A stretch of DNA of 64,000 nt from an uncultured Dehalococcoidia bacterium (GCA_950072105.1 CATMOE010000008.1:21797-85796); one strand, 5' to 3'; positions 3,443-60,266 are shown, numbered from the stretch's first letter. The notes: generated by a model not told the origin, from the letters alone. Made by a program: numbers and translations.

Positions 3443-3449
3443 TAATCAA
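3054..3449 (-). CDS. GxxExxY protein (PD-(D/E)XK nuclease-like)
   Basis: GPGLLESAY motif, VVVEIKS, QVLTYLK; 131 aa. Confidence 0.93.
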   Translation of the reverse strand: MISHRNTEITELNKITERIIGCGIEVHRHLGPGLLESAYEAALCVELGLQGLQYQRQVPIPLTYKGEQIGDYRIELVVEDTVVVEIKSVERHDPLFEAQVLTYLKITGKKIGLLMNFNSRLLTNGIKRLIF

Positions 3450-4579: not shown

Positions 4580-4589
4580 GGCCTGGTGT

Positions 4590-5438
4590 TCACTGCCCGC
4601 CGCCGCTGGAGCCCTCCTCCACATCGGAAGACTCCGCCTCGGCCCGGCGGTAGAGGTGGGTGTAGTCGCTGGCATAGAGGTGGGACGACGAGACGCCGTT
4701 GGCCGCAGTGGGGACGTGATGAAGCAGGGCCGGGTCCATCGCTTCGCCAACCATGATTAGAGCCTGCAAGGTGATCTTGGCATCCCTGACCTTGGCGGCA
4801 ATGTCGCTAAGGGTGCCCCGAATAATCTTTTCGTCCGGCCAACCCACCCGGTAGACAACAGCCACCGGAGTGGATTCAGTGTAACCCGCTTCTAATAACT
4901 GGCGCACCACGGTGAACATCCGCGTGATACTTAAAAATATGACTAGCGTGGAACCATGAGCCGCCAGGTCTTTCAGTTGTTCTCCGGGTGGCATGGAGAC
5001 ACGGCCTTGTGCCCGGGTCATGATCACCGTCTGGGACCCGCCGGGTATGGTCAATTCGACTTTCAGCCGGGCGGCCGCCGCGAAGGCCGCGCTTACCCCC
5101 GGTATGATTTCGTAATCTACCTGGGCCTCTTCCAAGATTCGCATCTGTTCCAGGACGGCCCCGTAGATTGAAGGGTCGCCGCTCTGGATGCGAGCCACGG
5201 TCTTCCCCTGGCGAACCGATTCCAATGTCAACTCCATGATTTCGCTCAGGTTCAGAGTCTTGCTGCCATGGACCTCGGCGCCGGGCTTGGCGAAATCCAC
5301 GATGGAAGGATGGACCAGGGAGTCGGCGTATATGATTACATCGGCGGACTCGATCACCGATTTGGCTTTTAACGTCAACAACTCCGGGTCGCCGGGGCCG
5401 CCGCCAACTATATATACCTTGCCTTGGCTTTGAGCCAT
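4590..5438 (-). CDS. cbiF: Cobalt-precorrin-4 C11-methyltransferase
   Basis: VGGGPGDPELLT, YADSLV, SGDPSIYGA, SHLY. Confidence 0.93.
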   Translation of the reverse strand: MAQSQGKVYIVGGGPGDPELLTLKAKSVIESADVIIYADSLVHPSIVDFAKPGAEVHGSKTLNLSEIMELTLESVRQGKTVARIQSGDPSIYGAVLEQMRILEEAQVDYEIIPGVSAAFAAAARLKVELTIPGGSQTVIMTRAQGRVSMPPGEQLKDLAAHGSTLVIFLSITRMFTVVRQLLEAGYTESTPVAVVYRVGWPDEKIIRGTLSDIAAKVRDAKITLQALIMVGEAMDPALLHHVPTAANGVSSSHLYASDYTHLYRRAEAESSDVEEGSSGGGQ

Positions 5439-5442
5439 TCTT

Positions 5443-6168
5443 TTACCTCTTGATTATCAGAAGGGAGAAATAGTCCAGGTCTTCCTCGGAGAGCGTGCTA
5501 AGGTCCCTGACCACCTCTTCCCGGGCGGTGCTGGCACGGCGTACGTATATGCCCTTTCCGGCCAAGCCCAGTTGCTCCAGATTAGCCAGCGCTTGTAGCA
5601 GGGTGCGGTTAACCTTCATGAGGATGATGGTGTCGTAGTTGGCGATGGCTTCGGATAGGTCGTCGATCCCGTAGACGGCGGGCAGGATCACCAATCTCTG
5701 GCCGTGGGTGACCAGGGGAACTCCGGCGCTGGCTGCCGCCGCCATGACGGAGGACACGCCGGGAATGATCTCCACGGTAACCTCAGGGTATCCCGACTTG
5801 ATGCTGTCCAACACGTAAGAAAAGGTGCTGTACAGCATGGGATCGCCTTCGGTGATAAACGCCACGTCCTTTCCTTGTTTGAGGTGGCCACCGATGGTGT
5901 CGGCGGCGTTCCGCCAGACCGCCGCGGCTCCCGCTTCGTCGTCGATGGGGAACGGAATCCGGATGATTTCCTGTTTTTTCTCGTCCAGGTAATCCCGCAC
6001 GATGTCCAAGGCATAGCTTTCCTGGCTGGACTCCGAGCGAGGTGTACATATCACCGGCACCTCTTGGAGAACCCGTAGGGCTTTCAACGTGAGCAACTCC
6101 GGGTCGCCGGGACCCACGCCCACTCCGTAGAAGCGCCCGAAGTTGGTGCTATTTCCCGTCGTGCTCAT
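5443..6168 (-). CDS. cbiL: Cobalt-precorrin-2 C20-methyltransferase
   Basis: GVGVGPGDPELLTLKA, EGDPMLYSTF, YFSLLII. Confidence 0.93.
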   Translation of the reverse strand: MSTTGNSTNFGRFYGVGVGPGDPELLTLKALRVLQEVPVICTPRSESSQESYALDIVRDYLDEKKQEIIRIPFPIDDEAGAAAVWRNAADTIGGHLKQGKDVAFITEGDPMLYSTFSYVLDSIKSGYPEVTVEIIPGVSSVMAAAASAGVPLVTHGQRLVILPAVYGIDDLSEAIANYDTIILMKVNRTLLQALANLEQLGLAGKGIYVRRASTAREEVVRDLSTLSEEDLDYFSLLIIKR

Positions 6169-6172
6169 CGAG

Positions 6173-6787
6173 CTATCCTTCTCGCCGGGCGGTCACCACG
6201 AAGACCGGGTTAAGGGCCTCCAAACGGACCGTCCCGTCGGGCATATCTTTTCCTCTGGACGAGTTCACCATAACCATGTCGGCAACAAAACCCGACGACT
6301 TGAAGCGTTGGTATACTTCATTTGTGCGTTCCAAGGCAGCCAGGTTAACCACGATGCGGCCGCCTGCTCGCAGCCGCTTTATCGCCACGTCTAATATCTC
6401 CGCCAGGCTTCCGCCGCTGCCTCCCACGAACACCGCGTCTGGGTCAGGCAATTCCACCAGTGCGTCCGGCGCTTCTCCGGCGATGATATGAACGTTCTTT
6501 GAGCCCCACTGCTCCACGTTACGCCGGAGCAGCGGCAAGCTCTCTTCGTCACGCTCCACGGCGTAGACAGTGCCTTCCCGGGCGATTATAGACGCTTCGA
6601 CAGAGATAGACCCGGTGCCGGCTCCGATGTCCCAAACCACGCTGCCGGGCCGGAGACCCAGGGAATAGAGGCTGACCGCGCGCACTTCCCGCTTGGTGAT
6701 CTGCCCCTGCAGCGGGCGCCGTTGCTCGAAAGCATCGTCGGGAAGGCCCAATGCCCGTTGCGAAGCCGCCTGCAATTTCTCAACCAT
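6173..6787 (-). CDS. cbiT: Cobalt-precorrin-6B C15-methyltransferase (decarboxylating), stand-alone
   Basis: GLPDDAF, ITKREVR, WDIGAGTGS, PDAVFVGGSG, ALNPVF. Confidence 0.92.
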   Translation of the reverse strand: MVEKLQAASQRALGLPDDAFEQRRPLQGQITKREVRAVSLYSLGLRPGSVVWDIGAGTGSISVEASIIAREGTVYAVERDEESLPLLRRNVEQWGSKNVHIIAGEAPDALVELPDPDAVFVGGSGGSLAEILDVAIKRLRAGGRIVVNLAALERTNEVYQRFKSSGFVADMVMVNSSRGKDMPDGTVRLEALNPVFVVTARREG

Positions 6788-7991
6788 TGGTCTGGCTTCC
6801 GGCGGTGGCGATCAGCGGAAGGCCCTGGGGCGACGTGGAAGCCTGGCCCAAGAGTGCGCCGTCGAAATCGAAGCACAGGCTATCGACGATGAGTTTATTG
6901 GCGTCGTCGCCAAGTAGCTTATGGCTTTCTTCGCAGACCATCTCGCACATCAAGGTAAATACCGAGTTCAGACCGTTGGCCAGCGCAAGTTCCTGAAAGT
7001 GGCGGGCGCTGGCGGCTTGGCGTATCTCTTCTTGAACCTCATCGGTCGCACCGCATTGGGAGGCCAGGGCAGCCAGGAAGGTGGTGTCCACCCGGTTCCC
7101 GGCCACGTGGGTCACGAAGTATCCTTGAGCCATTTTTGAGAGTTTGCCGACCATTCCAGCGTGGGTTGCCCGTTGGACGTTACGCATGACGCAACGTTTC
7201 AACGACGGTCCGCTGAAGATGCCGGCCTCGATGTAAGCCATGTCCGGCAGGTCCAATACTTTTTTGGTGAAGATCTCGCTCTGCGTGCCGGTGGAAAGCA
7301 CCAAGTGGGACAAGTCGTTGGTCGCCGCTACGTCTATGGCCATGTTCGCGCTGGCCCGCCATGCCGCGGTGGAAAAGGGCTGGACCACGCCGGTGCTGCC
7401 CAGGATGGATATCCCTCCCAGGATTCCCAGGCGTGAGTTGGTGGTCTTTTCCGCGATCTCTTCGCCGTTGGGAACGGAGATCTCCACGACTAAGCCGGTT
7501 TCGGACGGAAGGCCGTGGGTCGTGGCCGCTTCGTTCACAGAGTCGATTATCATGCGCCGGGGCACCCGGGTGACGGCCGGTTCGCCTACCTCGATCCCGA
7601 CACCTGGGCGGGTCACTGTTCCCACGCCGATACCCCCGGCGATCCGTACTTTATCAGCGAAGTTTGGGTCCCTGTAGACCGTGACGCATATCTCCGCACC
7701 GTGGGTGACGTCCGGATCGTCGCCGCCGTCCTTGATGACCGAGCAGGTCACTTTGCTTCCATCATCCGAGGTCTGGCATCGGTGAATCTCGAAGGTGACC
7801 GATCTGCCTACCGGCAACTGAATCGTTGATTGGCCAACCGATTCCCCGGTGAGCAGGGATTGAGTGGCGGCCTTGGCCGCAGCTGCCGCGCATGACCCGG
7901 TGGTATACCCGGTGCGCAGTCCCCCTCGCTTAACCGTTTGCCTGCTGTAGTCGCTTTCCGGCCTTTGGTCCGGATTCGGCTTGTCAACCAT
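6780..7991 (-). CDS. cbiD: Cobalt-precorrin-5B C1-methyltransferase
   Basis: LRTGYTTGSCAAAA, KDGGDDPDVTHG, RLGILGGISILG. Confidence 0.95.
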   Translation of the reverse strand: MVDKPNPDQRPESDYSRQTVKRGGLRTGYTTGSCAAAAAKAATQSLLTGESVGQSTIQLPVGRSVTFEIHRCQTSDDGSKVTCSVIKDGGDDPDVTHGAEICVTVYRDPNFADKVRIAGGIGVGTVTRPGVGIEVGEPAVTRVPRRMIIDSVNEAATTHGLPSETGLVVEISVPNGEEIAEKTTNSRLGILGGISILGSTGVVQPFSTAAWRASANMAIDVAATNDLSHLVLSTGTQSEIFTKKVLDLPDMAYIEAGIFSGPSLKRCVMRNVQRATHAGMVGKLSKMAQGYFVTHVAGNRVDTTFLAALASQCGATDEVQEEIRQAASARHFQELALANGLNSVFTLMCEMVCEESHKLLGDDANKLIVDSLCFDFDGALLGQASTSPQGLPLIATAGSQTNG

Positions 7992-8024
7992 CGTGTTTTA
8001 TCCGGTCACATGCTGGCGAGAGCA

Positions 8025-8948
8025 CTAGCCCTCCACCCGGTCCCATACTTGGCGTATCCGGTCAGCGGCCACCGCCACGATCCGGTCGTCAACGCCCAGA
8101 GGCGGCGTTACCGACAGAGATACGGTTGGGTGACTTTGAGCTATCCGGTCCATGCCCCCCAGAATGTTTCTCTTGAGGATTAGCCCGGGGAAAAACAGAT
8201 AGGGAACGACCACGATACGCGCGACTCCCCGCTCCTCCACCAATCTCGTAGCGGCATCGTCCACCGTTGGGTCACCGTAGTGGGACTGGGCCACCGCAAC
8301 AGCATAGCCCAAACCAAGACGATTCTCTACCATGCGCCCCAAGTCCTGGAACCAGAGGCAATCGTCGTACTGGTTCTTGGTGCCTGCCTTGACCACAAGC
8401 ACCCCGGTAGGACCTCCTTCCTTATTCGTAGGAGATTCTGTTTCGTTGGACAGGCCCAGACTTTGTACACGCTCCACTATGATCTCCGCCATGCGGGGAT
8501 CAGGGCCCAACGATTCAGCCAGGTATAATCCCAACGAAGGCAGTTTCGCGCGTAACTCGTCCAGGATCTCGTCCATCTCCAAGGTGACATGCTTTCCCTG
8601 ACCCAGCAGGTACGGGATGACCACCACCCGTTCCAGTCCCTGGTCCGCCATATTGTGGATGGACTGGTCTGGATGCGGTTCGATGAACTCCAAGCAAGAA
8701 AGCTCCACCTCGGCCCGTTGGCCGCCCAATGAGGATTGGAGGCGGTCTGCCGCATCCCTTAATCCCAATGGGGTGCTTGGACAATCCAGGCACCATGGGG
8801 GCCGTTCGTGTCCGGTCCCTCGCCAGGAACAGGAACACTCATCGGGGCTGGCGCCGCGCTGGCTGCCGTGGGCCACGAAAACAACACCCCACCGGCCGCC
8901 GCCGTTTTCGTCATTGCTACTGTCAGACATCTCCGGTCGTCCGGTCAT
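8025..8948 (-). CDS. cbiX: CbiX/SirB-family sirohydrochlorin cobaltochelatase, two domains, with Cys-rich insert
   Basis: VAHGSQ, LEFIEP, PYLLGQGKH, VPYLFFPG; operon context. Confidence 0.8.
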   Translation of the reverse strand: MTGRPEMSDSSNDENGGGRWGVVFVAHGSQRGASPDECSCSWRGTGHERPPWCLDCPSTPLGLRDAADRLQSSLGGQRAEVELSCLEFIEPHPDQSIHNMADQGLERVVVIPYLLGQGKHVTLEMDEILDELRAKLPSLGLYLAESLGPDPRMAEIIVERVQSLGLSNETESPTNKEGGPTGVLVVKAGTKNQYDDCLWFQDLGRMVENRLGLGYAVAVAQSHYGDPTVDDAATRLVEERGVARIVVVPYLFFPGLILKRNILGGMDRIAQSHPTVSLSVTPPLGVDDRIVAVAADRIRQVWDRVEG

Positions 8949-9595
8949 GATGACGCCTTTTGGTCTATCAGCGACAGCAGGGCGTTGACGGTGGCCGCGG
9001 CGGCCGAGCTGCCGCCACGCCTTCCGTGCACGGTGATATAGGGGATGGGACCGGCGGCCAGTTCTTCCTTAGACTCGGCGCAGGCCACGAATCCCACGGG
9101 CATACCGATGATTAATTTTGGCAAGGCTTTCCCTTCTTGAATCAAGTCCAGCAATGCTAACAAGGCGGTGGGGGCATTGCCAACGGCCACGACTGATCCG
9201 TTCAGATAGGGAGCTAATTCCCGAATGGCCGCAACCGAACGGGTGGTTCCCTCGCTTTGGGCGCGGGCCGCGACTTCCGGGGTGTCTATGCGGCATTGGG
9301 TGGCGACTTGATGGCTTTTGAGCAAGGCTTTGGATATTCCCATCTCCACCATCCGCACATCGGTAACGACCACGGCCCCGTCCCGAAGAGCGCCGATACC
9401 CAGGTCCACCGCTCCTGGGCTGAAGGACACGTCCAATGCTATCTGAGGGTCCCCTTCGGCCCGGACGATTCGGCTAACGACGTAGCGCTCGTTGCCGCTT
9501 AACGAGAGAGAGCCGGGCAGGGAAGCCTCCACCATTTTCAGGCTTTCCCGGTCGATCTCGTCCGGCAGCAAAGCGTATTTTTCAACCAGTGACAT
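8945..9595 (-). CDS. cbiC: Cobalt-precorrin-8 methylmutase
   Basis: AVGNAPTAL, GMPVGFVACAESK, GRRGGS. Confidence 0.93.
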   Translation of the reverse strand: MSLVEKYALLPDEIDRESLKMVEASLPGSLSLSGNERYVVSRIVRAEGDPQIALDVSFSPGAVDLGIGALRDGAVVVTDVRMVEMGISKALLKSHQVATQCRIDTPEVAARAQSEGTTRSVAAIRELAPYLNGSVVAVGNAPTALLALLDLIQEGKALPKLIIGMPVGFVACAESKEELAAGPIPYITVHGRRGGSSAAAATVNALLSLIDQKASS

Positions 9596-9659
9596 ATCAG
9601 TTACTCAGACTCCGGCCGGGGTTTGAATACTAGGAGCCTCCGGCGATGCCAGGAAGGCA

Positions 9660-10943
9660 TCAACACTCCTCGGCCCCCAATTTAAAAATCTCCCGGGCCA
9701 TGCGGAGGTCGCTGGGGCTTCGATGCTCCTTGAGGTAAACGGTGGGACCATGGAGAATCTTCTTGACGATAGCCTGGGTCATCGCCTCCAGGGTTGCGGT
9801 GTCATCCGGGGATAGATCTGGGTTCATCTTCCGCAGGGTTTTTTTGAGTTCCTGCGCTCTGATGGTTTCAGCTTTGTCCCGTAGCGCGATCACCGTGGGA
9901 AGGGCTTGTTGGGCAAGGCGCCACTGAAGGAAACCTTCGGTCTCCTTGATGATCAACTCCTCCGCCTGCTCGGCTTCGTTGGCGGCGGCGATCCGGCGGG
10001 CTTCAGATACCCTGTCCAGGTCGTCCACGTCGTGAAGAAAAACGTTATCGACCAAGCCCGCTGCCGGGTCTATGTCTCTGGGTACAGCGATGTCTATCAG
10101 AAACATGGGCCGGTCAGGCCGGGAGGCCATGGCGTTACTGACCAGATCCGCGCCCAAGATGTATTCCGGCGAACCGGTACAGGCGACCACAAGATCGCTT
10201 TCCCGGAGGGCATCGGGCATTTCTGGAAGTGGCACGGCATGCCCGGACAGGGTCTTGGCCAGTTCCACCGCCCGATGATGGGTACGGTTAACCACGGTGA
10301 TGTCCGACACGCCGGAAGAGCGCAATCCCATCGCTGCCAGGCCTCCGGCTTCTCCCGTGCCCAACACCATGGCGCTCAATCCGGTCAGATCTCCTAAGTC
10401 GCCCACGGCCAATTCCACGCAGGCCTGGCTGACGGACATGGCATGCCGGCCGATGCCGGACTCCCGGCGTACCTTGCGTCCCACCCGTAGGGCTTGTTGG
10501 AAGAGTTGATACAACGGCCCGGTCACGGTTTCGCCGCGTACGGCCGTGTCAAAAGCTTCCCGCACCTGCCCGATTATCTGGTCTTCGCCCAACATCATCG
10601 AATCCAGGCTGGAGGCCACTCGAAAAAGGTGGCTGACGCACTCCCGTCCGCGATGAAGATAGAGGTATCTTTCGACGTCCACCAGCCGGATGTGGAAACA
10701 ATCGACCAAAAACTCTTTTATATTTTTCTCGCCTTCGCCCCATCCGGCAGACGAGTCCGACCCTTCTTGGGGATCCAAGGCGTAAAATTCGGAGCGGTTG
10801 CAGGTGGACAGGATGACGCCGGGCATTCCGTAAGCCGCCATGGTTGTCAAAGCGGAAGGAAGTTGCTCCGAATTCAGCGTTATCTTTTCCCGCACCTCCA
10901 GCGGCGCGGTACGGTGGTTCAATCCTACGACCAGGAATTCCAA
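9660..10943 (-). CDS. hemA: Glutamyl-tRNA reductase
   Basis: GLNHRTAPLEVRE, STCNRSE, LDSMMLGEDQI, DIAVPRDI; TTG 10943 follows GGGAG RBS. Confidence 0.95.
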   Translation of the reverse strand: MEFLVVGLNHRTAPLEVREKITLNSEQLPSALTTMAAYGMPGVILSTCNRSEFYALDPQEGSDSSAGWGEGEKNIKEFLVDCFHIRLVDVERYLYLHRGRECVSHLFRVASSLDSMMLGEDQIIGQVREAFDTAVRGETVTGPLYQLFQQALRVGRKVRRESGIGRHAMSVSQACVELAVGDLGDLTGLSAMVLGTGEAGGLAAMGLRSSGVSDITVVNRTHHRAVELAKTLSGHAVPLPEMPDALRESDLVVACTGSPEYILGADLVSNAMASRPDRPMFLIDIAVPRDIDPAAGLVDNVFLHDVDDLDRVSEARRIAAANEAEQAEELIIKETEGFLQWRLAQQALPTVIALRDKAETIRAQELKKTLRKMNPDLSPDDTATLEAMTQAIVKKILHGPTVYLKEHRSPSDLRMAREIFKLGAEEC

Positions 10944-11013
10944 ATAATACTCCCTAGCTTGCCTCAACAAGAGTCCCTAGATGTGCCATTGTTCAGAGTT
11001 AAGGGCCGTTTGG

Positions 11014-25643: not shown

Positions 25644-26255
25644 TTATCCACCCTGATCCAACTCGCGGCGGATGGTGAACATTCTTTGGAAAAGCGTGAA
25701 GCAGGAAACCGCGGCAATGAGGAGGAGGACCCAAAAGATCTGTCCTATCAGCAAGCCGATGCCCAGAAGGATAACCCGTTCGGTACGGGTCATTAATCCG
25801 GACCTGGAGAAAACGCCCAATCCCTCTCCGCGGGCCCGTAGATAGCTGACCCCTTGGGAGAAGATCAGCGCTAGAAATAACACGATAATGAATACTAGGA
25901 GGTATGATTCGTCGAAGTTTGCCCCAAGGGCGTAGAACGCCAACCCCACGAACAGGGCGGCTTCTCCCAGACGGTCAAAGACGGAGTCAAGAAGGGCGCC
26001 GAATGGGCTAACCTTGCCGGTAAGGCGGGCTAATGCCCCGTCCATCAGGTCTAGACCGCTGCCCAGGAGAAAGACGATGCCTCCAGCCAGCAGCCAGCCA
26101 GAACCGACGAGATATGCCGCCACGACGGTAAACCCAAAACCGATGAGCGTCACTGCGTTGGGGGTCAGCTTTAATGCTCTGAGGAATCGGGCGCCGGGCA
26201 GCTCAACGTATTGAAGTATGGCCTCTCTTATCTGCTCTCTTCCTGGTACGGCCAT
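25644..26255 (-). CDS. pgsA: CDP-alcohol phosphatidyltransferase (PI-phosphate synthase-like)
   Basis: TPNAVT, DLMDGALAR..GALLDSVFDR, SYLRARGE, RTER. Confidence 0.88.
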   Translation of the reverse strand: MAVPGREQIREAILQYVELPGARFLRALKLTPNAVTLIGFGFTVVAAYLVGSGWLLAGGIVFLLGSGLDLMDGALARLTGKVSPFGALLDSVFDRLGEAALFVGLAFYALGANFDESYLLVFIIVLFLALIFSQGVSYLRARGEGLGVFSRSGLMTRTERVILLGIGLLIGQIFWVLLLIAAVSCFTLFQRMFTIRRELDQGG

Positions 26256-27369
26256 TGGCTAAACTCATACAGTCTTTATAATAATCTTCCACCTGGGCGG
26301 CGACCCGGTCCCACCGGTATTGCTCAACTGTTTGGCGGCCCTGGGACCCCAGTTTATTACGCAATTGGGGGTCACGAATCAGCGTACCCAGCGCTTGGGC
26401 CAGGCCTTCTATGTCTTTGCGGGGAAATAACAGGCACTCCTGGCCGTGGGTAACGATACCGGCGTACCCTTCGATGTCGGAAGCGACCACCGGCTTTCCC
26501 GCGGCCATGGCCTCCAGCAGCACAATGCCGAAGCTTTCCGCGCCGGTGGCCGGCGAACAGAATATGTCGGCGCTGGCGTAGTAACGAGGCAGGTCTTCAT
26601 AGGGAACCGAGCCGGTAAATACCACGTCGTTCAGGCCCCGGCCACCAAGTATGCTGTGGGATTCCTTATCTGGGGAGCCGGGACCCACAACCAATAGCCT
26701 AATGTCCGGCAGGTCCCATTTCAGGCGGCTGAAGGCTTCCAGCAGGTACCTCAGCCCTTTGCGCTTCTCAAGACGTCCGACGAACAAGATGTTGATCTTG
26801 CCGTCCTGGTATTCAGGCCACGGCGCCGCCTTAGTTGAGAAGTGGTCCAGGTCTATCCCATTGGGGATGATTTTGTAATTTCCGGGAAACGCGCTGCTTA
26901 CATAACGTAGCGCGGCGGGGGAGACGGCGATACCTCCGTCCAAACGCTGGTGCCATCGCTTGATGAGGGGATGGCTGAGGTGGTACAGGTGGCTGTGCTT
27001 ATAGGAGGCGTGAAAGGTGCCTATGTTGACCGCGTCGGAAAATTCCAGAACGCAAAGGGGCAATATGGGCGCCATCGGCTCGTGGAGATGGACGATATCG
27101 AAGGCCTCCCGCTGCAAAAGGGCCCGGACCTTGGGGTACAACCACCAAGAAAGGGAAACCCGGGCGGTGGATCCGCCGCTGGGCAGCGGAACCGACCTGC
27201 CCAGTGCGACGAACGGTTCGTCGTTTTCATTTTGACGGGATGGCGAGTGGGGTGCCAGGACCTGAACTTCATGGCCGTTCCGGCCCAACTCCCGGGCTAG
27301 TTGGGTGACGTGGGCAGTTACCCCACCGGGCCAGGTGAAATCGTAGGGTGAAACCATGGCGATTTTCAC
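26203..27369 (-). CDS. pimA: GT4 glycosyltransferase, PimA-like phosphatidylinositol mannosyltransferase
   Basis: VSPYDFTWPGGV, HLHEP, GTFHA, RKG, ESFGIVLLEAMAAG. Confidence 0.8.
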   Translation of the reverse strand: MKIAMVSPYDFTWPGGVTAHVTQLARELGRNGHEVQVLAPHSPSRQNENDEPFVALGRSVPLPSGGSTARVSLSWWLYPKVRALLQREAFDIVHLHEPMAPILPLCVLEFSDAVNIGTFHASYKHSHLYHLSHPLIKRWHQRLDGGIAVSPAALRYVSSAFPGNYKIIPNGIDLDHFSTKAAPWPEYQDGKINILFVGRLEKRKGLRYLLEAFSRLKWDLPDIRLLVVGPGSPDKESHSILGGRGLNDVVFTGSVPYEDLPRYYASADIFCSPATGAESFGIVLLEAMAAGKPVVASDIEGYAGIVTHGQECLLFPRKDIEGLAQALGTLIRDPQLRNKLGSQGRQTVEQYRWDRVAAQVEDYYKDCMSLANGRTRKRADKRGHTSIR

Positions 27370-27412
27370 GCAGTCCCTCCAGATAGCGGCCGAGAGGCAA
27401 CCCGTATCCGGG

Positions 27413-28504
27413 CTATTCTGATTCGCCTACGGCGCCCGGGTTTTCGATGAAGTCTTCCACCATCTTCCTCGCAACATCGTCGGTAAATTGGTCCGGTGGC
27501 GATTTCATAAAGTACGCGCTGGGGCCTTGGAGGGCTCCGCTGATGCCCCGGTCAAGGGCCAACTTGGCGCAGCGTACCGCATCGACAACGACGCCTGCTG
27601 AGTTGGGGCTATCCCAGACTTCCAGCTTGACTTCCATGTTGATCGGCGCACCGCCGAAAGAGCGCCCCTCAATACGGATGTGGCACCATTTGCGGTCTTG
27701 GAGCCATGGTACATGGTCGCTGGGACCGACATGGATATCATCGGGGTCGATTCCCTCGTCCATCTGGGAGGTAACCGCGCTGGTTTTGGAGATTCTCTTG
27801 GAGACGGTCCGTTCCCGTTCCAGCAGGTTTAGGAAGTCGGTATTTCCGCCGAAGTTCAACTGATAGGTGTTCACGATCTTCACACCCCGGTCTTCAAACA
27901 AGCGGGTGAGCACCCGGTGGGTAATGGTCGCGCCCAATTGGGACTTGATATCGTCGCCTACTATGGGCACTCCGCGCTCCTCAAATCGCTTGCTCCAGTA
28001 TTCCTCTTTGGCGATGAAAACCGGGATGCAGTTGACCATGGCGCACCTGGCTTCCAGGATCTGCTCCACGTACCATTTGGTGGCCATTTCGCTGCCCACA
28101 GGCAGGTAGTTGATCACCACGTCCACTTCTCGCTCTTTAAGGATGGCGGTAATGTTGGCGGTGGAGTGGGAGGATTTTTTCACCAGGTGGGATACGTATT
28201 TGCCGATGCCGTCGTGGGTCATGCCCCTTTCCACTGGAACGCCCATGTGGGGCACGTCCGCAAACTTCAAGGTGTTGTTGGGTTCAGTGAATATGGCTTC
28301 GGAAACGTCCTTGCCGACCTTGTTCTGATCGATATCGAAAGCAGCCACCACTTCGATGTCTTCGATCCGGTAGTCGCCTATCTTGACGTGCATGATGCCC
28401 GGGACTTCGGAATCCTCGGGTAGCTCTACGTACTCGTGAATACCCTGCACGAATGAAGAGGCGCAATTTCCTACGCCAATGATGGCGACTTTGATTTTCC
28501 CCAC
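27413..28504 (-). CDS. ino1: myo-inositol-1-phosphate synthase (short, actinobacterial-like type)
   Basis: [44 protein letters not shown]. Confidence 0.95.
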
Positions 28505-28641: not shown

Positions 28642-29328
28642 TCAGGCGGCAGGAGGGAAGAATCGGAAGATTGCTGTCCGGTCGTCGTGCCTAAAGCGTC
28701 TCCCCAATTGCTCTGGCACCCCGCCTTTACCAAGGCGGCCTTCCACGACCTCATTCGTTTTCTCCGCCGCGTCGCTGGCAGAAGGAGCGGCGCGGATGAT
28801 GTCTGACAACTCCTCTACTAGCATATTGTCGGTCACTCCGTCGGTGGCCAGCACCAGTCGTGTGCCGGGTTCCACCGGAAGCTCGGCGCGGGCCAAGTTT
28901 GTGAGGGTTTCGTTGGCCCCGATCGCTTTGGCCACCCCCACGTGCAGGAAACCGCCCATCCGGCCTGAGATCTGCCGGATGGAGTCACCGATAATGTGGA
29001 AGACCGGGCTATCCCCGGCGCTGATCACGTGCAGCTTGTCGTCTTGGTACAGAACGATCGATACGGTGGTCAACAAGAACCTTCCACCGCCGACCTCGTA
29101 AAACTCCTGGTTGACCGCCTCAAGGGCGGCGACGATGTCCTCGGGCGATTTGATAGTTGCCGCGGATAGGGCGTCCACCACCGACTGGCTGGCCTCCTCC
29201 CCGCCATGGCCGGTGACGCCGTCCATCACGCAATCCATGAAAGAATTATCGCCCAGGTCACGGAGCAGAAAGTTATCTTCTCCGTGAGATGAGTTATCTT
29301 GGAATGTAGCTACTGTGCTACTGAGCAT
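28642..29328 (-). CDS. PP2C/SpoIIE-family phosphatase
   Basis: GEDN, VMDGVTGHGG, AGDS, LATDGVTD, HDDRT. Confidence 0.85.
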   Translation of the reverse strand: MLSSTVATFQDNSSHGEDNFLLRDLGDNSFMDCVMDGVTGHGGEEASQSVVDALSAATIKSPEDIVAALEAVNQEFYEVGGGRFLLTTVSIVLYQDDKLHVISAGDSPVFHIIGDSIRQISGRMGGFLHVGVAKAIGANETLTNLARAELPVEPGTRLVLATDGVTDNMLVEELSDIIRAAPSASDAAEKTNEVVEGRLGKGGVPEQLGRRFRHDDRTAIFRFFPPAA

Positions 29329-29372
29329 GTTCCTTGTCCTTCATTGTTTCTATACGGATTTGGCTGTCGGGA

Positions 29373-30443
29373 TCAGCGGTCGAAAGCCGCTAATTCGACT
29401 TCGGCGTCGAAAAGGTATTTGTTCCAGTGGTCTTCTTTAAGCCAGTTTAGCGCCTCTCCCCATGCCAGGCGCATCTTATCCATGCCCTCCAGATCCTCGT
29501 CTCGTTGATCAACTGCCGTCAGGTAGGAGTTCAAGTCCTGGCAGAAGCCGGCAAGGTCGGTATATGAGCGGTCGTGAACCCTGGCTATCATGTCCAGGGC
29601 AGCGGTTCGCACCGGCTCGTCCGTTTCGCCGAAAGCTGCGGCCATCTCGTCCAATTCCTCTAGGAAGTTGACCACCGGACGTTGACCGTAGGGTTCCCGG
29701 TAGTCCGCCGCATCCTCAGGATGCGTTTTGGGAGTGGCGTAAAATTTCAGCATTTCTAGACAGAAGTCGTGAATGTCCCTGGGCGGCCTACCCCGGCGGT
29801 CCGGCTCTCCATCCAAGGAAACCAGGTCACCACAATCGACGACGGTTATATGGCCGGTTAATGGCTGGTAAAAAAGGTTTTGTGGGCGAAGGTCCAGCAA
29901 AATATAGCCGATCTGGATAAAAGATTCTTCCAACGTCAGTAATTGTTCGTGAACGGCGAATGGGGCGCGGTCCGGTGGGCGCAGCAATGGGTGTAAGGCG
30001 AACAGGTTCTGGCCTACACCGGTTGGGACTCCCGTGATGCGGGCTCTCATGTCCCCCACCATCAAAGGTATGCCTTTGGCTCGTTCTTCTACGATAACCC
30101 GGTATTCCTGCCCCAAGGAGTCGCCGTAGAACTGGTCGTGGATCGCTCGTTCCGTATATCCAACCATGGGCACTAAATTTTCGTTGGTCTGGCCGATCTG
30201 CTCTAGGACTTGAAGTGTACGATCGGTGCGCGCTTCGGTGCTGACGTGCATTCCCCGGCTTATCATCTGGGGTACGGGCCTCTTCAAAACCACCTGTTTG
30301 CCGGTTTCCTGGTCCAGCGCCGCTCGGACTTCATAGTCGGCGCCGGTACCCAAGATACCAGAGGTCTGGAAGCGGTCAAGGTCGACTTTTTGCATCAACA
30401 TACGTCCGATCGCCAATCGCCCCATCACCGCGCCAAGAGCCAT
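29373..30443 (-). CDS. Divergent Ser/Thr protein kinase-like protein
   Basis: LGTGADYEV (Gly loop), VVLK, LLDLRPQN (catalytic loop), VVDCG (DFG-like); start may be 30401. Confidence 0.65.
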   Translation of the reverse strand: MALGAVMGRLAIGRMLMQKVDLDRFQTSGILGTGADYEVRAALDQETGKQVVLKRPVPQMISRGMHVSTEARTDRTLQVLEQIGQTNENLVPMVGYTERAIHDQFYGDSLGQEYRVIVEERAKGIPLMVGDMRARITGVPTGVGQNLFALHPLLRPPDRAPFAVHEQLLTLEESFIQIGYILLDLRPQNLFYQPLTGHITVVDCGDLVSLDGEPDRRGRPPRDIHDFCLEMLKFYATPKTHPEDAADYREPYGQRPVVNFLEELDEMAAAFGETDEPVRTAALDMIARVHDRSYTDLAGFCQDLNSYLTAVDQRDEDLEGMDKMRLAWGEALNWLKEDHWNKYLFDAEVELAAFDR

Positions 30444-54298: not shown

Positions 54299-55930
54299 GT
54301 GGCGCGAGATATCGGACCGGACGGGGTATTCATCAACGCCGCCGGCATGATTACCATGCAAGGTCAGCCTTTTTTTGAAGATGGGTTAACTGCCTTGGCG
54401 GTGCGAGACGGCAACATCATCGCCATCGGTTCCGGCGAGTCCATTCTCTCCATGGCCGGTCAGGTTCCCGTGGTGGACCTGGAACGCGCCGTGGTGATGC
54501 CCGGCCTCATCGACAGCCACAACCATTTTCTAAGTACCGCGCTAGGCTGGAACCGCGTGCAGATCCACGGAGCCAGGTCCATCGATCAACTGTTGGAGTC
54601 TATCGAACAACGCGTCCGTGAAGCGCCGCCCGGCGAGTGGATCCTGTGCTCCAGCCGGTGGCACGAAACCAATCTGGCGGAACGGCGCATGCCCACGGCC
54701 GCGGAGTTGGACCGGGTCGCACCCAATCACCCCGTCTACCTGCCACGGGGAGGCCACGTCGTAGTCACCAACACTTTGGGATTGAAACTGGCGGGAATCT
54801 CGCCGGACAGCACTGATCCGTCGGGAGGCGAATTCGTAAGAGACGGCGCCGGCCGGCTCACCGGCATGTTATTGGAAAGGCCGGCATTCTCCAGTCTCGC
54901 CCGGTTGCTGCCCCAGCCAGGCGAGGACGACCGCCGGTCGGCTATCCGCGCCGGGATCGCAGCCTACAATCAGGTTGGCATCACCGCAGTGAGAGAGCCT
55001 GGATTAACCGGCGAAGAGATTCAGTCTTACCAGGCGGTGATAACCGAGGAGAAGTCGATCAGGGCCTCGCTGATGTGGCGGGTTGATCTTGGCACGTCAC
55101 CGGAAGAGCGGCGACAGTGGGTTCAAGGGTTAGCATCCAAGAGCGAAGGGGGCAACCAGTGGTTGGATATTTGGGGTCTGAAAGTGACCTTGGACGGTGG
55201 TGTGGAAGGCGGCTACTTTTACGACGCATACGCTAACAATCCTGATTTTAAGGGCTTCCCATTCACCAGCCAAGAAAACCTTACGGCCATCGTAGAGGAG
55301 GCCCACCACATCGACTGGAGAGTTGGTGTACATGTAGTCGGCGACGCCGCCTTGGAATTGGCCTTGGACGCGTTCCAGGCAGCCAACGCCCGGTCGTCTA
55401 CCAAAGGCCGCGGACACGCCTTGGAGCACGCTTTCACGCCGGTTCACCGGTCCATGGAGCGGACCCTGGAAATGGGCATCGGCGTGACCCTGCAACACGC
55501 CCTGGTTTACAGCTTGGCCGGTAACATGCAGACCTATTGGGGTGACCGGCGCGCGGCGGACTGCACTCCCTCCCGCGCCTGGATAGATTCGGGGGCTCTG
55601 GTCGGCGCCGGCACGGACTCCCCGGTCACCGGCTACGACCCGTGGCTAAATATATACGGATTTGCCACTCGGGACACCGAAGTCGCCGGAATCATCGGTC
55701 CGGAGCACTGCATCTCCATCGCCGAGGCGTTGCGGGCGTACACCGTCGGGTCGGCGGAGATCTTCGGAAGGGGAAGCGCCCTTGGATCTCTGGAAGTCGG
55801 CAAGGCAGCGGACTTCATCTGCTTGGAGCGTGACCCTCTAGCATCCTCACCCGATCAGGTGCGCCACATGAAAGTAACGCGGACTTTCGTGGGCGGCAGG
55901 CAGGTGTACCCGGGTCCCGGCCGCGAGTAG
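54299..55930 (+). CDS. Amidohydrolase 3 (YtcJ-like)
   Basis: PGLIDSHNH, KVTLDGG, HVVGD, LEHA, GTDSP, GSLEVGKAADF. Confidence 0.9.
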   Translation: MARDIGPDGVFINAAGMITMQGQPFFEDGLTALAVRDGNIIAIGSGESILSMAGQVPVVDLERAVVMPGLIDSHNHFLSTALGWNRVQIHGARSIDQLLESIEQRVREAPPGEWILCSSRWHETNLAERRMPTAAELDRVAPNHPVYLPRGGHVVVTNTLGLKLAGISPDSTDPSGGEFVRDGAGRLTGMLLERPAFSSLARLLPQPGEDDRRSAIRAGIAAYNQVGITAVREPGLTGEEIQSYQAVITEEKSIRASLMWRVDLGTSPEERRQWVQGLASKSEGGNQWLDIWGLKVTLDGGVEGGYFYDAYANNPDFKGFPFTSQENLTAIVEEAHHIDWRVGVHVVGDAALELALDAFQAANARSSTKGRGHALEHAFTPVHRSMERTLEMGIGVTLQHALVYSLAGNMQTYWGDRRAADCTPSRAWIDSGALVGAGTDSPVTGYDPWLNIYGFATRDTEVAGIIGPEHCISIAEALRAYTVGSAEIFGRGSALGSLEVGKAADFICLERDPLASSPDQVRHMKVTRTFVGGRQVYPGPGRE

Positions 55931-55951
55931 CACCGGCAGCGGTGTTCTTGG

Positions 55952-55980
55952 TTGACAGTTAACGATTTTTTCGTTAATGT
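55952..55980 (+). promoter_or_regulatory. Sigma70 promoter with internal palindromic operator; predicts a leaderless transcript
   Basis: TTGACA-17 bp-TAATGT; TTAACGA-N5-TCGTTAA at 55959-55977; ATG 7 nt after the -10. Confidence 0.75.
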
Positions 55981-55987
55981 GCTCAAC

Positions 55988-57508
55988 ATGAAACATCAAT
56001 TGAACCCCGCCGAGCTGGTAATATCTCGCTTCGGGGGCCAGACCTCGCTGGCAGCTCTTCTTGGCAAGCGGCAAAGCACCGTGCAGCATTGGGCGAAAAC
56101 CGGACGGATTCCATCGCAATGGCACGCACAGCTGATGCAGGTCGCCCGCGACAAAGGAATCGCCCTTGAACCCAAGGATTTCGTCGCGATGGAATCTCCG
56201 TCTATCCAGCGGGCTGATGGGAAGCTCGGCATTATGCTTGTGGGCCTAGGCGCCGTTTCCTCCACCCTGATCGCCGGCGTCGAGCAGATTCGGCGCGGCG
56301 TGAGGCAACCTGTTGGATCGATCACTCAGATGGCCACGATCAGGATTGGCAACCGGACGGAGAAACAGACACCCCTGATACGGGATTTTGTTCCGCTGGC
56401 AGACCTAGAGCAACTTGTGTTCGGCGCCTGGGACCCGATTCCCGACAACGCATATGAAGCCGCCTTGAAGTGCGGAGTCTTGAACCGGTATGAAGATATC
56501 GACCCCATTGCGGACTTCCTGAGAAGCATCGAGCCAATGCCAGCCGTATTCGACAGCGAATACGTCAAGCGGATCAAGGGCACCAACACAAAGACGGCAA
56601 GCACTAAGTTCGAAGCCGCCGAGGCTATTCGCGATGACATCCGCCGCTTCAAGGCCACTAACGACTGCGACCGGCTCGTGATGATTTGGTGTGCGTCTAC
56701 CGAAAAATTCGTTACCGAATCGGATGTGCATCAAGACATTGAGAGTTTCATAGGGGGGCTCAGAGAGAACGATGAAAATATCGCACCCTCCATGATTTAT
56801 GCCTACGCCGCCCTGATGGAGGGCGTTCCCTTCGCCAACGGCGCGCCGAATCTGACAACTGACGTCCCAGCTCTCGAGAAGCTAGCACGCGATGAAGAGA
56901 CCCCAATTTGCGGGAAGGACTTCAAGACTGGCCAAACCCTCGTCAAAACAGTGATAGCTCCAATGCTGAAGGCAAGAATGCTTGGCGTGGACGGCTGGTT
57001 TTCGACGAATCTACTGGGCAACCGGGATGGTGAGGTTCTCGATGAGCCTGAGAACTTCAAGACGAAAGAGGAATCGAAGCTTGGTGCCTTGGATTACATC
57101 TTGCAGCCCCATCTGTACCCTAGCCTCTATGCCGATGCCTATCACAAGGTCCGTATCAACTATTACCCGCCCCGTGGAGATAACAAAGAAGGTTGGGACA
57201 ACATAGATATCTTCGGCTGGCTTGGTGGCCGTATGCAGATCAAAGTCAACTTCCTATGCTCAGATTCCATCCTCGCCGCCCCACTAGTGCTCGATGTAGC
57301 TCTGTTTATGGATCTGGCAAAGCGAGCCGGGCTAAGCGGGATTCAGGAGTGGCTGTCCTTCTACTTCAAGAGTCCTCATCATGCGCCAACCGTATATCCA
57401 GAGCATGACCTCTTCATACAGCAGACGAAGCTCAAGAACACCCTCAGGTGGTTAATGGGCGCCGGGCAGATCACGCATCTCGGAATGGAGTACTACCGTG
57501 AGGGTTGA
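55988..57508 (+). CDS. ino1: Cro/YdaS-like HTH fused to myo-inositol-1-phosphate synthase (long type)
   Basis: FGGQTSLAALLGKRQSTVQHWAKTGRIP, then VGLGAVS, WCASTE, GKDFKTGQT, NLLGNRDG, GDNKEGWD, DSILAAP. Confidence 0.9.
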   Translation: MKHQLNPAELVISRFGGQTSLAALLGKRQSTVQHWAKTGRIPSQWHAQLMQVARDKGIALEPKDFVAMESPSIQRADGKLGIMLVGLGAVSSTLIAGVEQIRRGVRQPVGSITQMATIRIGNRTEKQTPLIRDFVPLADLEQLVFGAWDPIPDNAYEAALKCGVLNRYEDIDPIADFLRSIEPMPAVFDSEYVKRIKGTNTKTASTKFEAAEAIRDDIRRFKATNDCDRLVMIWCASTEKFVTESDVHQDIESFIGGLRENDENIAPSMIYAYAALMEGVPFANGAPNLTTDVPALEKLARDEETPICGKDFKTGQTLVKTVIAPMLKARMLGVDGWFSTNLLGNRDGEVLDEPENFKTKEESKLGALDYILQPHLYPSLYADAYHKVRINYYPPRGDNKEGWDNIDIFGWLGGRMQIKVNFLCSDSILAAPLVLDVALFMDLAKRAGLSGIQEWLSFYFKSPHHAPTVYPEHDLFIQQTKLKNTLRWLMGAGQITHLGMEYYREG

Positions 57509-57562
57509 CCTGCAGAACAGGATCGAGGGTGTTCTGGATTTGTATCGAGAAGCTAGAAATCC

Positions 57563-57751
57563 GTGGTGTTCCATGAAGCTCAAATTCGCGGCCCTAGGCT
57601 CACCGCAATAGTATTCGACACGACCCGGAGCTACCAGATCGCGTTTGCCATTTTTATTGCCTGCTTCCTGGCTTCGGCGGTGTTTTTGTATTTCGCACAA
57701 CCTCCCGTCCCTGTGGTATCCACTCCCTCATTAGAAGCCTCAGACTACTGA
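57563..57751 (+). pseudogene. C-terminal remnant of an MFS transporter
   Basis: GP..IVFDTTRSYQIAFAIF resembles the last MFS helices; no N-terminal part present. Confidence 0.55.
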
Positions 57752-57923
57752 TCTGTCGCCGGACTCCAGTTCAAGCCGGCGCCAAATAGTTTATGAGCTT
57801 GGCGGCGTTCTTGCGCAATTCTACGCTGGTGTTAGTGTAAGATCGTGCGGCCTCCGGCAACCGCAACAAGTAGTCCCGGATGCCAAAGGCAGCCATAAAA
57901 GGCGAAACAACAGGGGCGAAGTC

Positions 57924-60266
57924 ATGACAGAGCAACACTCGGTGCAAGAGCAGACGTTCAGTCTGATGGAAAAGACGATCGACGAGATCCACGCGGCGAT
58001 AAAGTCGGGGCAGACAACCTGTGTAGCGATCGTGCGGCAATACTTAGACCGGGTACGAGCCTACAACGGTGTCGCCAGCATGCTGGTCACCGAAGATGGA
58101 GCGGCCGTTCCGGAAGCCCCAGGCGTAGTTCGGGGGAGGCAGCCCCTACGCTTTCCCACAGAAACTGTCAAAGCCTCGACCGTCTTGCCCGATCTCGACA
58201 GATACCAAGGACCGCCGTTGGAATACGGCCGCATGGAGCCGACTTCATCCGATCCCACGGTATCCCAGCAATTCGGAATGATCGGCGGGATACCGAACGC
58301 CGGACAGGTAAACGCCCTTGCCACGCTGAATATAAGGGGCGAACGGTCGGTCACGTGCAAAGGAGACTTCGACCGGCATGTCAACGAGGGCCCCCTTCCC
58401 CCCGGAGCGCCTCCGGTTTGCGAACACTTCCGCCTGATGCCCGACGCCCTAGAGCGGGCCGCCGAGCTAGACGCGGCTTACGGAAGCAACCCCGACCTGG
58501 AAAAGATGCCGATGTATGGCGTGGTGTTTTCCTTCAAGGACCCTTTCGACACCAAAGACATGCGCTCTACCGGTGGCGGTGACGCGCATTACGACATCGA
58601 CTTTCCGGCACGGGATCACGTGCTGGTGGAGCAGCTTCGGGAAAAAGGCGGGATCATCTTCGCCAAGGCGGTCAACACGGAGTACAACGGACGGGCCGGG
58701 GACCCCGGTGGCCGCAACGATCCTGATAAAGTGCTGCCGTCGGTGCTGGGGTACCAGCGCAGCACTTGGGCCGGCAATCCTTCCAACCCCTACGACACCA
58801 CCCGCTCGGCGTCTTTGGGATCGAGCTCGGGCTCTGCTTTGTCGGTCAGCACTAACATGGTTATGGCCAGCCTGGGGGAAGAAACACGAGCGTCAACCCG
58901 GGGACCGTCAAACCACAATTCGGTGGCGCTTATACTGCCCCACAAGTCGCTGATAGGCTTTGACGGGGGCGCCATCGGCGCCGACATATACTGCGACCGC
59001 AGCGGCATCATCTGCCGCACTATCGGCGACTGCGCTAAAGTCCTAGACGCCCTGAAGGACCCATCCGAAGGTTACTACGACCCCCGCGACCCATTCACCA
59101 CCGTGCCGCGCTCGTCCGTGTTAAGCACAACCTTCGCCAGTCACGCATCTACGACCGGCGCGACCGGCGCGCTTAAGGGTATCCGCATCGGTATCATTCG
59201 GGAGTCCATGGTCTTCCCGGCCGGCTCCAATACCGAGACGCCCATCGTCTCCGCCGCCGCACGGGAGATCAAGACCGTCCTCAGTGACAAGCTTGGGGCC
59301 ACCCTGGTGGAATCGTCCGACCCTCTTTGGGAAAGGGACCCGGAAATCGAATCCATGAAAACGGATTTCCGGCGCGCCTTGGCCCGTCTGGTCCCAGTAT
59401 TCATGCCGGAGCTGTTATTTCGGATGAGGCCCGATGGACAACCCCTTTTCGAGGAGTTCGCGGCGGCCATCCTTCCCACCGAATTCATGCCTGGAAAGAT
59501 TTTCGGCTCGGGCACGATGCAGCCCATCGACTATTTCGTCGAGTTGGCGGACGGCCGGATAGAACCGCCCTTGAACCTGAACATCGCCACCGTCCAACAG
59601 CAGGAGTTGGCGATGGCGTTCCGGTACCATATCCCCCAGTACCTATCGCGCCGCGCCGCCGACTGGAAGGAGTTGGGTTTCACGGAAACGCTGGTCGATT
59701 TCCCCACCCTCAACCAGCGGTCCAAGTTCTGGGGCGACGACCATCGCGCCGCCTTCAAGAATTGGGAAGAAGTGACCGACCCGCGCAATCCCCACGGGCA
59801 GCGTCAAGGGGTAAATGAGCGGATAATGCTGCGTGAATTGCTGCGCCGGGTGGATATGATGGTGCTGATAGAGAATCACCTGGACGCACTGGTCCGCCTG
59901 CACACGCCCTTTCCGCCGGCCAAGATCGGCGGCCCCAGTCAGCACGGAATCTCGGGGAATCTGCGTTTAGAATCGTTCAACGGTCCAAACGCGGGCCTGA
60001 CGGAAGTCCTGATCCCGGCTGGCTACGTCACAACCGTCTACGACCCAGTATTCCAACTCAGCCCCGACGGCGCCCGCTACCTGTCCGTCCCCTCCAACGT
60101 CCCAACAACCATCCCGGAGCCGGGATTACCCTTCTCCCTGGTGTTCCGCGCCGACCCTGGCAAAGAAGACATCATCCTAAAGATTGCCTCAGCCTACGAA
60201 GCGGCCTCAAAACGCCGCGTTCCACCACCGGATTTTGGGGCGGTGCCTGGGACGAATCCGGGGTAG
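57924..60266 (+). CDS. Amidase signature family protein
   Basis: TIDEIHAAIKSG, FKDPFDT (Lys), GSSSGS, GEETRAS, AYEAASKRRVPP. Confidence 0.88.
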   Translation: MTEQHSVQEQTFSLMEKTIDEIHAAIKSGQTTCVAIVRQYLDRVRAYNGVASMLVTEDGAAVPEAPGVVRGRQPLRFPTETVKASTVLPDLDRYQGPPLEYGRMEPTSSDPTVSQQFGMIGGIPNAGQVNALATLNIRGERSVTCKGDFDRHVNEGPLPPGAPPVCEHFRLMPDALERAAELDAAYGSNPDLEKMPMYGVVFSFKDPFDTKDMRSTGGGDAHYDIDFPARDHVLVEQLREKGGIIFAKAVNTEYNGRAGDPGGRNDPDKVLPSVLGYQRSTWAGNPSNPYDTTRSASLGSSSGSALSVSTNMVMASLGEETRASTRGPSNHNSVALILPHKSLIGFDGGAIGADIYCDRSGIICRTIGDCAKVLDALKDPSEGYYDPRDPFTTVPRSSVLSTTFASHASTTGATGALKGIRIGIIRESMVFPAGSNTETPIVSAAAREIKTVLSDKLGATLVESSDPLWERDPEIESMKTDFRRALARLVPVFMPELLFRMRPDGQPLFEEFAAAILPTEFMPGKIFGSGTMQPIDYFVELADGRIEPPLNLNIATVQQQELAMAFRYHIPQYLSRRAADWKELGFTETLVDFPTLNQRSKFWGDDHRAAFKNWEEVTDPRNPHGQRQGVNERIMLRELLRRVDMMVLIENHLDALVRLHTPFPPAKIGGPSQHGISGNLRLESFNGPNAGLTEVLIPAGYVTTVYDPVFQLSPDGARYLSVPSNVPTTIPEPGLPFSLVFRADPGKEDIILKIASAYEAASKRRVPPPDFGAVPGTNPG

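Follow-up and report, generated by a model that had tools for sequence, protein, structure and literature searches.

Does an inositol-phosphate synthase that carries its own DNA-binding domain repress the gene that encodes it, and would it do so in response to the metabolites that it binds? The question is raised by a gene in the 64,000-nt stretch of DNA analyzed here (hereafter, the window), the host of which is described as a marine Dehalococcoidia relative. A sequence-only reading of the window had proposed that the gene encodes a Cro/YdaS-type HTH fused in frame to a complete myo-inositol-1-phosphate synthase (MIPS), and that the product binds a palindrome in its own leaderless promoter. 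We followed this proposal through profile and structure searches, comparison of homologous promoters, and analysis of the coding sequence itself, and the features under discussion are collected in the table.

Features of the fusion locus and of related genes in the window (positions counted from the first letter of the window; a dot marks features given without strand)
Feature	Position	Strand	Remarks
-35 hexamer TTGACA, predicted sigma-70-type promoter	55952..55957	+	sequence; homologous promoters
Operator O1, TAACGA-N5-TCGTTA	55960..55976	.	fills spacer; last TA opens -10
-10 TAATGT, TAnnnT type	55975..55980	+	T 100%, A 98%, last T 98% in 97 promoters
HTH-MIPS fusion gene	55988..57508	+	506 aa from ATG 55988; predicted leaderless
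Cro-like all-helical HTH (carph-isopro), aa 5-65	56000..56182	+	NF046037 64 bits; AlphaFold pLDDT 89.7
Linker, 12 residues between F65 and G78	56183..56218	+	length 12 in 93/93 distinct genes
Bacteroides-type myo-inositol-1-phosphate synthase, aa 78-506	56219..57505	+	7nwr match E 9e-162; active-site residues kept
Operator-like O2, TACCGA-N5-TCGTTA	56698..56714	.	codons S237-T243; 738 bp after O1
Unit of ~2 kb, likely inserted	55912..57900	.	absent from relatives' empty-site contigs
MFS transporter C-terminal remnant	57563..57751	+	tblastx; MFS label by eye
Stranded former 3' end of amidohydrolase gene	57901..57927	+	TGA overlaps amidase ATG (ATGA)
Separate short-type ino1	27413..28504	-	followed by GT4 glycosyltransferase and PIP-synthase-like gene

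The open reading frame ends at 57508 and opens at 55952 only in the mechanical sense that a TTG stands there. The fusion itself was real as read, in that NCBIfam model NF046037 (aa 9-60, 60-64 bits against a cut-off of 38) and both MIPS Pfam models (PF07994, 318 bits; PF01658, 114 bits) matched above their cut-offs. We refer to NF046037 by its model name, carph-isopro. Of the label Cro/YdaS-type, the Cro-like part stood, on the evidence of NF046037 and of the fold, whereas the YdaS and P22_Cro profiles matched weakly, below cut-off. AlphaFold predicts a Cro-like fold for aa 1-71 with a pLDDT of 89.7, and the best structural match to the HTH is the Cro protein of Xfaso 1 (3bd1; Z 7.3, rmsd 2.4, 61 aligned residues), followed by those of N15 (2hin, 6on0; Z 6.6) and P22 (1rzs; Z 6.0), all of them middling Z values; phmmer relates the HTH to 3bd1 at E 7e-5. 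The presumed recognition helix reads RQSTVQHW, and Q29, S30, T31 and W35 of the HTH are invariant in 93 of 93 distinct fusion genes. No LacI-family model matched the fusion protein in profile searches. For the enzyme, the catalytic residues given for yeast MIPS (N350, G353, N354, D356, K369, K373, K412 and D438; PMC5614600) align with N341, G344, N345, D347, K360, K364, K400 and D426 of the fusion, each of which is kept by 88-93 of the 93 distinct homologs; yeast S368 corresponds to T359. By this alignment the MIPS part has intact active-site residues; the full-length predicted structure is poor over the catalytic domain, where 173 residues fall at pLDDT <50.

The promoter was laid out as had been noted, with TTGACA, a 17-nt spacer, TAATGT, and a perfect TTAACGA-N5-TCGTTAA palindrome at 55959-55977, and its parts could be weighed across 101 loci, comprising the window, 20 phylum matches, and the best 80 of 399 genome-collection matches, with three duplicate pairs included. 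The expectation that the palindrome would recur upstream of homologous fusions was borne out in 100 of the 101 loci, where O1 occupies the same offset and has 0, 1, 2 or 3 mismatches (52, 31, 13 and 4 loci); these counts are not independent trials, because the loci and genomes are close kin. The remaining locus (L025), from a same-genus relative, has an O1 spacer of 4 bp, and L208, the 5' end of which appears damaged, has no O1. Among 97 distinct promoters, the left arm of O1 carries 1.5-2 bits per base against about 0.1 in its flanks, although it lies within the sigma spacer, and exceeds most positions of the -35 in information. The -35 itself matches at 5-6 of 6 positions at the same offset in 50 of the 97 promoters and at 3 or fewer in 42. 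The -10 of the window matches TATAAT at 3 of 6 positions only, and the promoter went unlisted by a consensus scanner.

The start codon lies six to seven nucleotides past the -10 in 90 of the 101 loci (seven for the ATG at 55988), in keeping with the leaderless layout first read from the window alone, and neither GGAG nor GAGG occurs 4-16 nt upstream of the start in any of 100 loci. We therefore predict, from these sequence comparisons, that the transcript is leaderless. In contigs of low depth from four metatranscriptome runs, the fusion gene and its neighbors were covered alike; one contig begins at 55958, ahead of the predicted start, and may represent DNA or read-through. Additional operator copies stand near O1 at five loci, L014 (+31 bp), L021 (-95), L206 (-97), L211 (-95) and L085 (-107), and in L014 and L206 the whole promoter-operator seems to have been duplicated.

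The association of O1 with the fusion extends to the scale of genomes. Since the O1 of the window is the sole zero-mismatch copy of TAACGA-N5-TCGTTA in a 4.08-Mb genome, it is not a chance occurrence, and in 401 genomes of the phylum the exact form TAACGA-W5-TCGTTA occurs 14 times, 13 of them at the fusion gene (reversed control, 0). Expressed by genome, 13 of the 21 fusion genomes hold an exact site, once each, and the other 380 genomes hold a single one; this match (L109, G263:C1:2824316) is intergenic, about 280 bp before an open reading frame without a family label. Upstream of three non-fused long MIPS genes, the best match to O1 had 4-5 mismatches, and the upstream region of a fourth such control was interrupted by a contig end. 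No second exact site appeared in any of the 401 genomes, where weak sites could remain, and a matrix built from O1 alone scored O1 at 29.5 bits and the intragenic site O2 at 27.4 in the 4.08-Mb genome, with nothing else above 15.3. The regulon, as far as such searches reach, appears to be the fusion gene alone.

The best evidence that the HTH is what binds the operator comes from outside the MIPS fusions, because the operator goes with the HTH onto unrelated proteins. Scans of viral and metagenome sequences recovered the carph-isopro HTH joined to unrelated C-termini, those that could be typed being P63C or RhuM. Perfect palindromes with 6-bp arms are enriched before non-MIPS HTH genes at several spacer lengths, with a peak at 5 (18 of 45 genes versus 2.2), so a motif test was used in their place, in which the eight strongly conserved O1 positions formed a relaxed motif and 110 nt upstream were scanned. 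From 49 of 52 metagenome loci and three viral loci, 43 genes were left once duplicates, a gene with a broken frame, and a MIPS fusion had been taken out. The relaxed motif is exact upstream of 16 of these 43 genes (shuffles: mean 0.1, maximum 1); allowing one mismatch raises the count to 23 (mean 1.2, maximum 6), which leaves 20 genes with none. One HTH-P63C gene (L186) has the complete TTGACA, O1 and TATAAT arrangement of the fusion promoter. Covariation between half-site and recognition helix is only partial in these sequences: helices that end in xY-W are mostly accompanied by TATCAA halves (30 of 34 have A at position 5), QH-W helices on non-MIPS proteins occur with both TAACGA and TATCAA (7 of 16 have G), and among MIPS fusions 140 of 200 halves read TAACGA. 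As the HTH-operator pair also serves non-enzyme partners, the module needs no enzyme partner, and on this comparative evidence the accessory genes of the HTH-P63C and HTH-RhuM kinds probably carry a portable cassette for autorepression.

Within this wider family, HTH-P63C and HTH-RhuM genes (L125, L139-L189) have TAnCnA-W5-TnGnTA palindromes, one or two per promoter. Representative proteins with the same HTH include RibB (DHBP synthase; P0252), MEDS sensors (P0168, P0174, P0179), a metallo-beta-lactamase/Apyc1-like enzyme (P0247) and IalB-like proteins (P0267, P0271), and the RibB fusion is a second candidate for a self-repressing metabolic enzyme.

Inside the coding sequence, the codons under O2 carry a signal that points to selection on the DNA. 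O2 itself, which the first reading had not noticed, came to light when the genome was scanned for sites resembling O1. In the STEK group, which is 48 of the 93 genes and was chosen after inspection of the codon table, GAA, AAA and RTT number 47, 47 and 46, where the codon usage of the individual genes predicts 17.2, 13.0 and 10.6; in the 21 genes whose GC3 reaches 0.8 or more, they number 20, 21 and 21 against a predicted 4.1, 3.2 and 2.6. Among 463 five-codon windows that of O2 ranks first, with an excess of 0.84 (mean 0.13, sd 0.10), and the same codons in the other 45 genes rank 290 of 457. In a quick tree of 89 enzyme domains, genes with O2 group into a single clade with 53 members (SH-aLRT support of 100, no bootstrap); the site persists in 50 of these and has been lost from 3, and 34 fusions that branch elsewhere lack it. 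When the O2 columns were left out of tree building, codons 238-242 showed 5, 1, 1, 1 and 2 synonymous changes, where like columns have medians of 17, 8, 7, 7 and 12; S237 is unexceptional in this test. At all six synonymous positions the bias is toward the base favored by the O1 matrix, the rare ATA codon appears in five clade genes with K240I, where it preserves the A/T spacer, and I242V changes have restored the consensus G at three places on the tree.

Taken as sequence evidence, these observations place O2 under selection at the DNA level, in one clade only, and make it a likely auxiliary operator. The distance from O1 to O2 is 725-741 bp across genes. Because the commonest form of O2 departs from O1 at a position conserved there to 99%, scoring 9-21 bits against an O1 median of 29, the site may bind weakly. 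Three genes without a good O2 (L021, L206 and L211) have a second site 95-97 bp upstream instead. A slippery-site reading was rejected by inspection, as there is a five-A run only and no fit to X XXY YYZ.

The fusion is scattered in its distribution. A search with aa 1-75 returned 301 clusters, and a MIPS domain was present in all 120 among the matches listed; 27 short matches that might have been stand-alone copies of the HTH look mostly like cut or frameshifted fusions. Of 400 other genomes from the phylum, 20 have the fusion, and among close relatives it occurs patchily, in 10 of 40, its own genome included. The titles of the best 80 of 399 genome-collection matches are Chloroflexota (Dehalococcoidia, SAR202, Tepidiforma) but for two, short contigs labelled Poribacteria and Phycisphaerales, and the cultured carrier Tepidiforma flava has O1 only. 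No neighboring gene is kept across the 80 loci, the commonest being an ABC ATPase-like family (17 of 80) and an MshA-like glycosyltransferase about 4 kb upstream (11).

At the site in the window, relatives with an empty version of the locus agree with the suggestion that the gene is a separately acquired module. Contigs from runs X4, X16, X17 and X18 join 55911 to 57901/57902 through 10-11 other letters, and a fifth run has a loose end at the same joint; the GC content of the unit is 0.54, compared with 0.61 in the flanking genes. With ten letters in between, the frame of 57901-57927 is, by arithmetic, in register with the amidohydrolase, and the simplest reading of these sequences is that promoter, gene and MFS remnant were inserted into a coupled amidohydrolase-amidase operon. 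The MFS remnant, reported from the outset, was recovered by tblastx to two other places in the genome (E 3e-5 and 4e-5), which we read by eye as MFS C-termini; the MFS family encoded downstream at six other loci gave no match to it. Transposon-type ends were sought and dismissed, a 7-bp direct match near the unit ends being judged chance and no inverted repeat of at least 7 bp being present. One same-genus genome also has a filled site. In another same-genus locus (L193, G435:C11), a mandelate-racemase-like gene is joined directly to the amidase, without amidohydrolase and fusion, so that by sequence comparison this spot is one that gains and loses genes.

The window does hold a different ino1, of the short type, as the first reading had it, and the run of short ino1, GT4 and PIP-synthase-like gene (25644-28504, minus strand) suggests lipid supply, with glycosylated phosphatidylinositol lipids as the products; the PIP-synthase-like gene scores 138 bits, below the cut-off of 170. 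Of 53 fusion genomes checked, 17 have a short-type Ino1 beside the fusion and 36, several of them closed, yielded no intact second Ino1, so the fusion often serves as the principal enzyme. A decayed second ino1 is visible in two genomes with the fusion (G283:C1:761468-761704 and G259:C1:3121087-3121233), consistent with replacement of the short enzyme by the fusion. Mycothiol as a product is not established, because the MshA-like gene of the genome scores 364 bits against a cut-off of 462 and the MshC-like match 308 against 485, the latter not distinguished from cysteinyl-tRNA ligase. MshA-like glycosyltransferases at L123 (G000:C39:14904-16088) and L072:1011-2348, at 353-364 bits against the same cut-off of 462, make a mycothiol-like or other inositol-phosphate glycoside pathway possible in Chloroflexota. 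Elsewhere in the window, a PP2C-like phosphatase stands beside a kinase-like open reading frame just before the short ino1 (28642-30443, minus strand; by eye), and genes at 2263-10970 (minus strand) are, judging by their N-termini, what we take to be cobalamin/tetrapyrrole biosynthesis genes.

Together, these comparative tests strongly support the autorepression first proposed, because the site is conserved, tied to the fusion, and follows the HTH into unrelated fusions, and we think it highly probable that the fusion represses its own gene. In the mechanism that we propose, an enzyme tetramer like that of BT_1526 would pair the HTHs, and an HTH pair on O1 would exclude RNA polymerase, giving negative feedback by which the enzyme caps its own level. 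Within the O2 clade, the second HTH pair of the tetramer could occupy O2 and tighten repression through a loop of about 740 bp or as a roadblock; we favor binding of O2 by the fusion, with moderate confidence, and put forward its looping to O1 more tentatively. Binding of NAD, glucose-6-P or inositol-P might also retune HTH spacing across the fixed 12-residue linker, a ligand gating that we put forward as tentatively as the looping, the invariant linker length being a hint only. Stated whole, with the MIPS tetramer acting as its own LacI, clamping O1 and O2 in a ligand-switched loop of about 740 bp by means of a portable cassette of Cro head and operator, the model is improbable in all its parts at once.

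The closest competitor denies only the ligand-gating step. If a portable HTH-operator cassette on MIPS simply held the level of the enzyme constant, dosage would be controlled without metabolite sensing, an outcome that we consider evenly poised. Metabolite gating is not required by the data, because the HTH-operator pair also occurs with non-enzyme partners; the same HTH and operator family accompanies P63C and RhuM, the HTH also turns up with MEDS, RibB, metallo-beta-lactamase-fold and IalB domains, exact sites gave no sign of a wider regulon, and the fusion is patchy (10 of 40 relatives) and without conserved neighbors. Pulling the other way are the linker, which has the same length of 12 residues in each of 93 genes, and the rise of a second operator within the enzyme-coding part, which fits use of the enzyme oligomer. 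The identity of the second site can itself be disputed, for the frozen codons 238-242 might instead be explained by RNA structure, by pausing or slippage during translation, or by a promoter within the gene. The modest score of the majority form and its distance of 738 bp from the promoter speak for such a reading, but the skew of all six synonymous positions to the O1-matrix base, the poor pairing of the majority form as a hairpin (by inspection), the I242V changes that restore the consensus G, and the genes that have an upstream site in place of a good O2 make it unlikely.

Two further readings accept O1 as an operator and change either what binds it or what binding does. A degenerate -35 is a trait of activator-dependent promoters, and 42 of 97 promoters match at 3 or fewer positions, which would suit a fusion that activates its own promoter; a site over the -10 and spacer is, however, the classic position for steric repression, and O1 overlaps the -10, fills the spacer, and is accompanied in many promoters by a perfect -35, so we rate activation as very unlikely. 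Slightly less credible still is the reading in which a trans-acting, IpsA-like inositol sensor binds O1 and the HTH is a passenger. IpsA does act on ino1 through a palindrome in Corynebacteria (PMC3899939), and the support for O1 binding by the fusion is comparative, drawn from sequence. Nevertheless, the motif accompanies the HTH onto unrelated genes in viral and metagenome contigs, is absent before non-fused MIPS genes and occurs once per genome where exact, and Q29, S30, T31 and W35 do not vary in 93 of 93 genes. Autorepression by the fusion remains our preferred account of O1.

In the literature searched, largely freely accessible papers, we found no description of a MIPS-HTH fusion or regulator, or of carph-isopro; a brief prior mention elsewhere is possible. 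The fusion would extend the few known enzyme-repressors by an enzyme and a DNA-binding family not represented among them before, and the carph-isopro domain, so far uncharacterized, gains a predicted operator, TAnCnA-W5-TnGnTA, valid across unrelated fusions. In O2, a coding sequence appears to be under selection as a predicted protein-binding site. The host group is little studied, with Dehalococcoidia and SAR202 records among the closest matches, and because the unit is compact (promoter, operator, gene), it should be easy to test in E. coli. If ligand-gated, it would constitute a one-gene sensor for inositol-phosphate flux.

Ligand control is established for enzyme-repressors of the BirA type and is the defining feature of a trigger enzyme; among the other features of that class, the fusion has a DNA-binding domain joined to an intact enzyme and, by comparison, a conserved site in its own promoter. 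BirA, NadR, PutA and the archaeal RbkR (PMC5397151) likewise combine an N-terminal DNA-binding domain and an intact enzyme with a palindrome at their own or their pathway's genes, whereas the fusion pairs MIPS with a phage-Cro-type HTH, has apparently a single-gene regulon, and possesses a second, intragenic site. The closest solved enzyme, BT_1526 of Bacteroides thetaiotaomicron (PDB 7NWR), is described as active and tetrameric (PMC9246714); it matches the fusion at E 9e-162 from fusion residue 72 onward, which leaves the HTH without a counterpart, and shows 56% identity in the structural match. Cro proteins are dimers on palindromic operators, their free domains dimerizing weakly or only on DNA (PMC6649833), and those of Xfaso 1, N15 and P22 share the all-helical Cro fold with the fusion HTH, but they are stand-alone phage switch proteins, whereas this HTH is linked to an enzyme and has neither a cI partner nor a conserved neighbor. 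The likeness to IpsA of Corynebacteria and Mycobacteria, described as a LacI-type activator that senses myo-inositol, has several targets, and binds a palindrome at ino1 (PMC3899939), lies in the palindrome at an inositol-phosphate synthase gene; IpsA is a separate protein of the LacI type and the fusion is not.

LacI has the auxiliary operators O2 and O3 besides its main operator. The fusion locus resembles the LacI and GalR systems, the latter with DNA looping (PMC6524683), in pairing a promoter operator with a weaker copy that lies either within the coding region or some 95 bp upstream and in having a presumed four-headed binder, and it differs from both in that the presumed tetramer is the enzyme itself, acting over a spacing of 725-741 bp in what is, here, a proposed loop.
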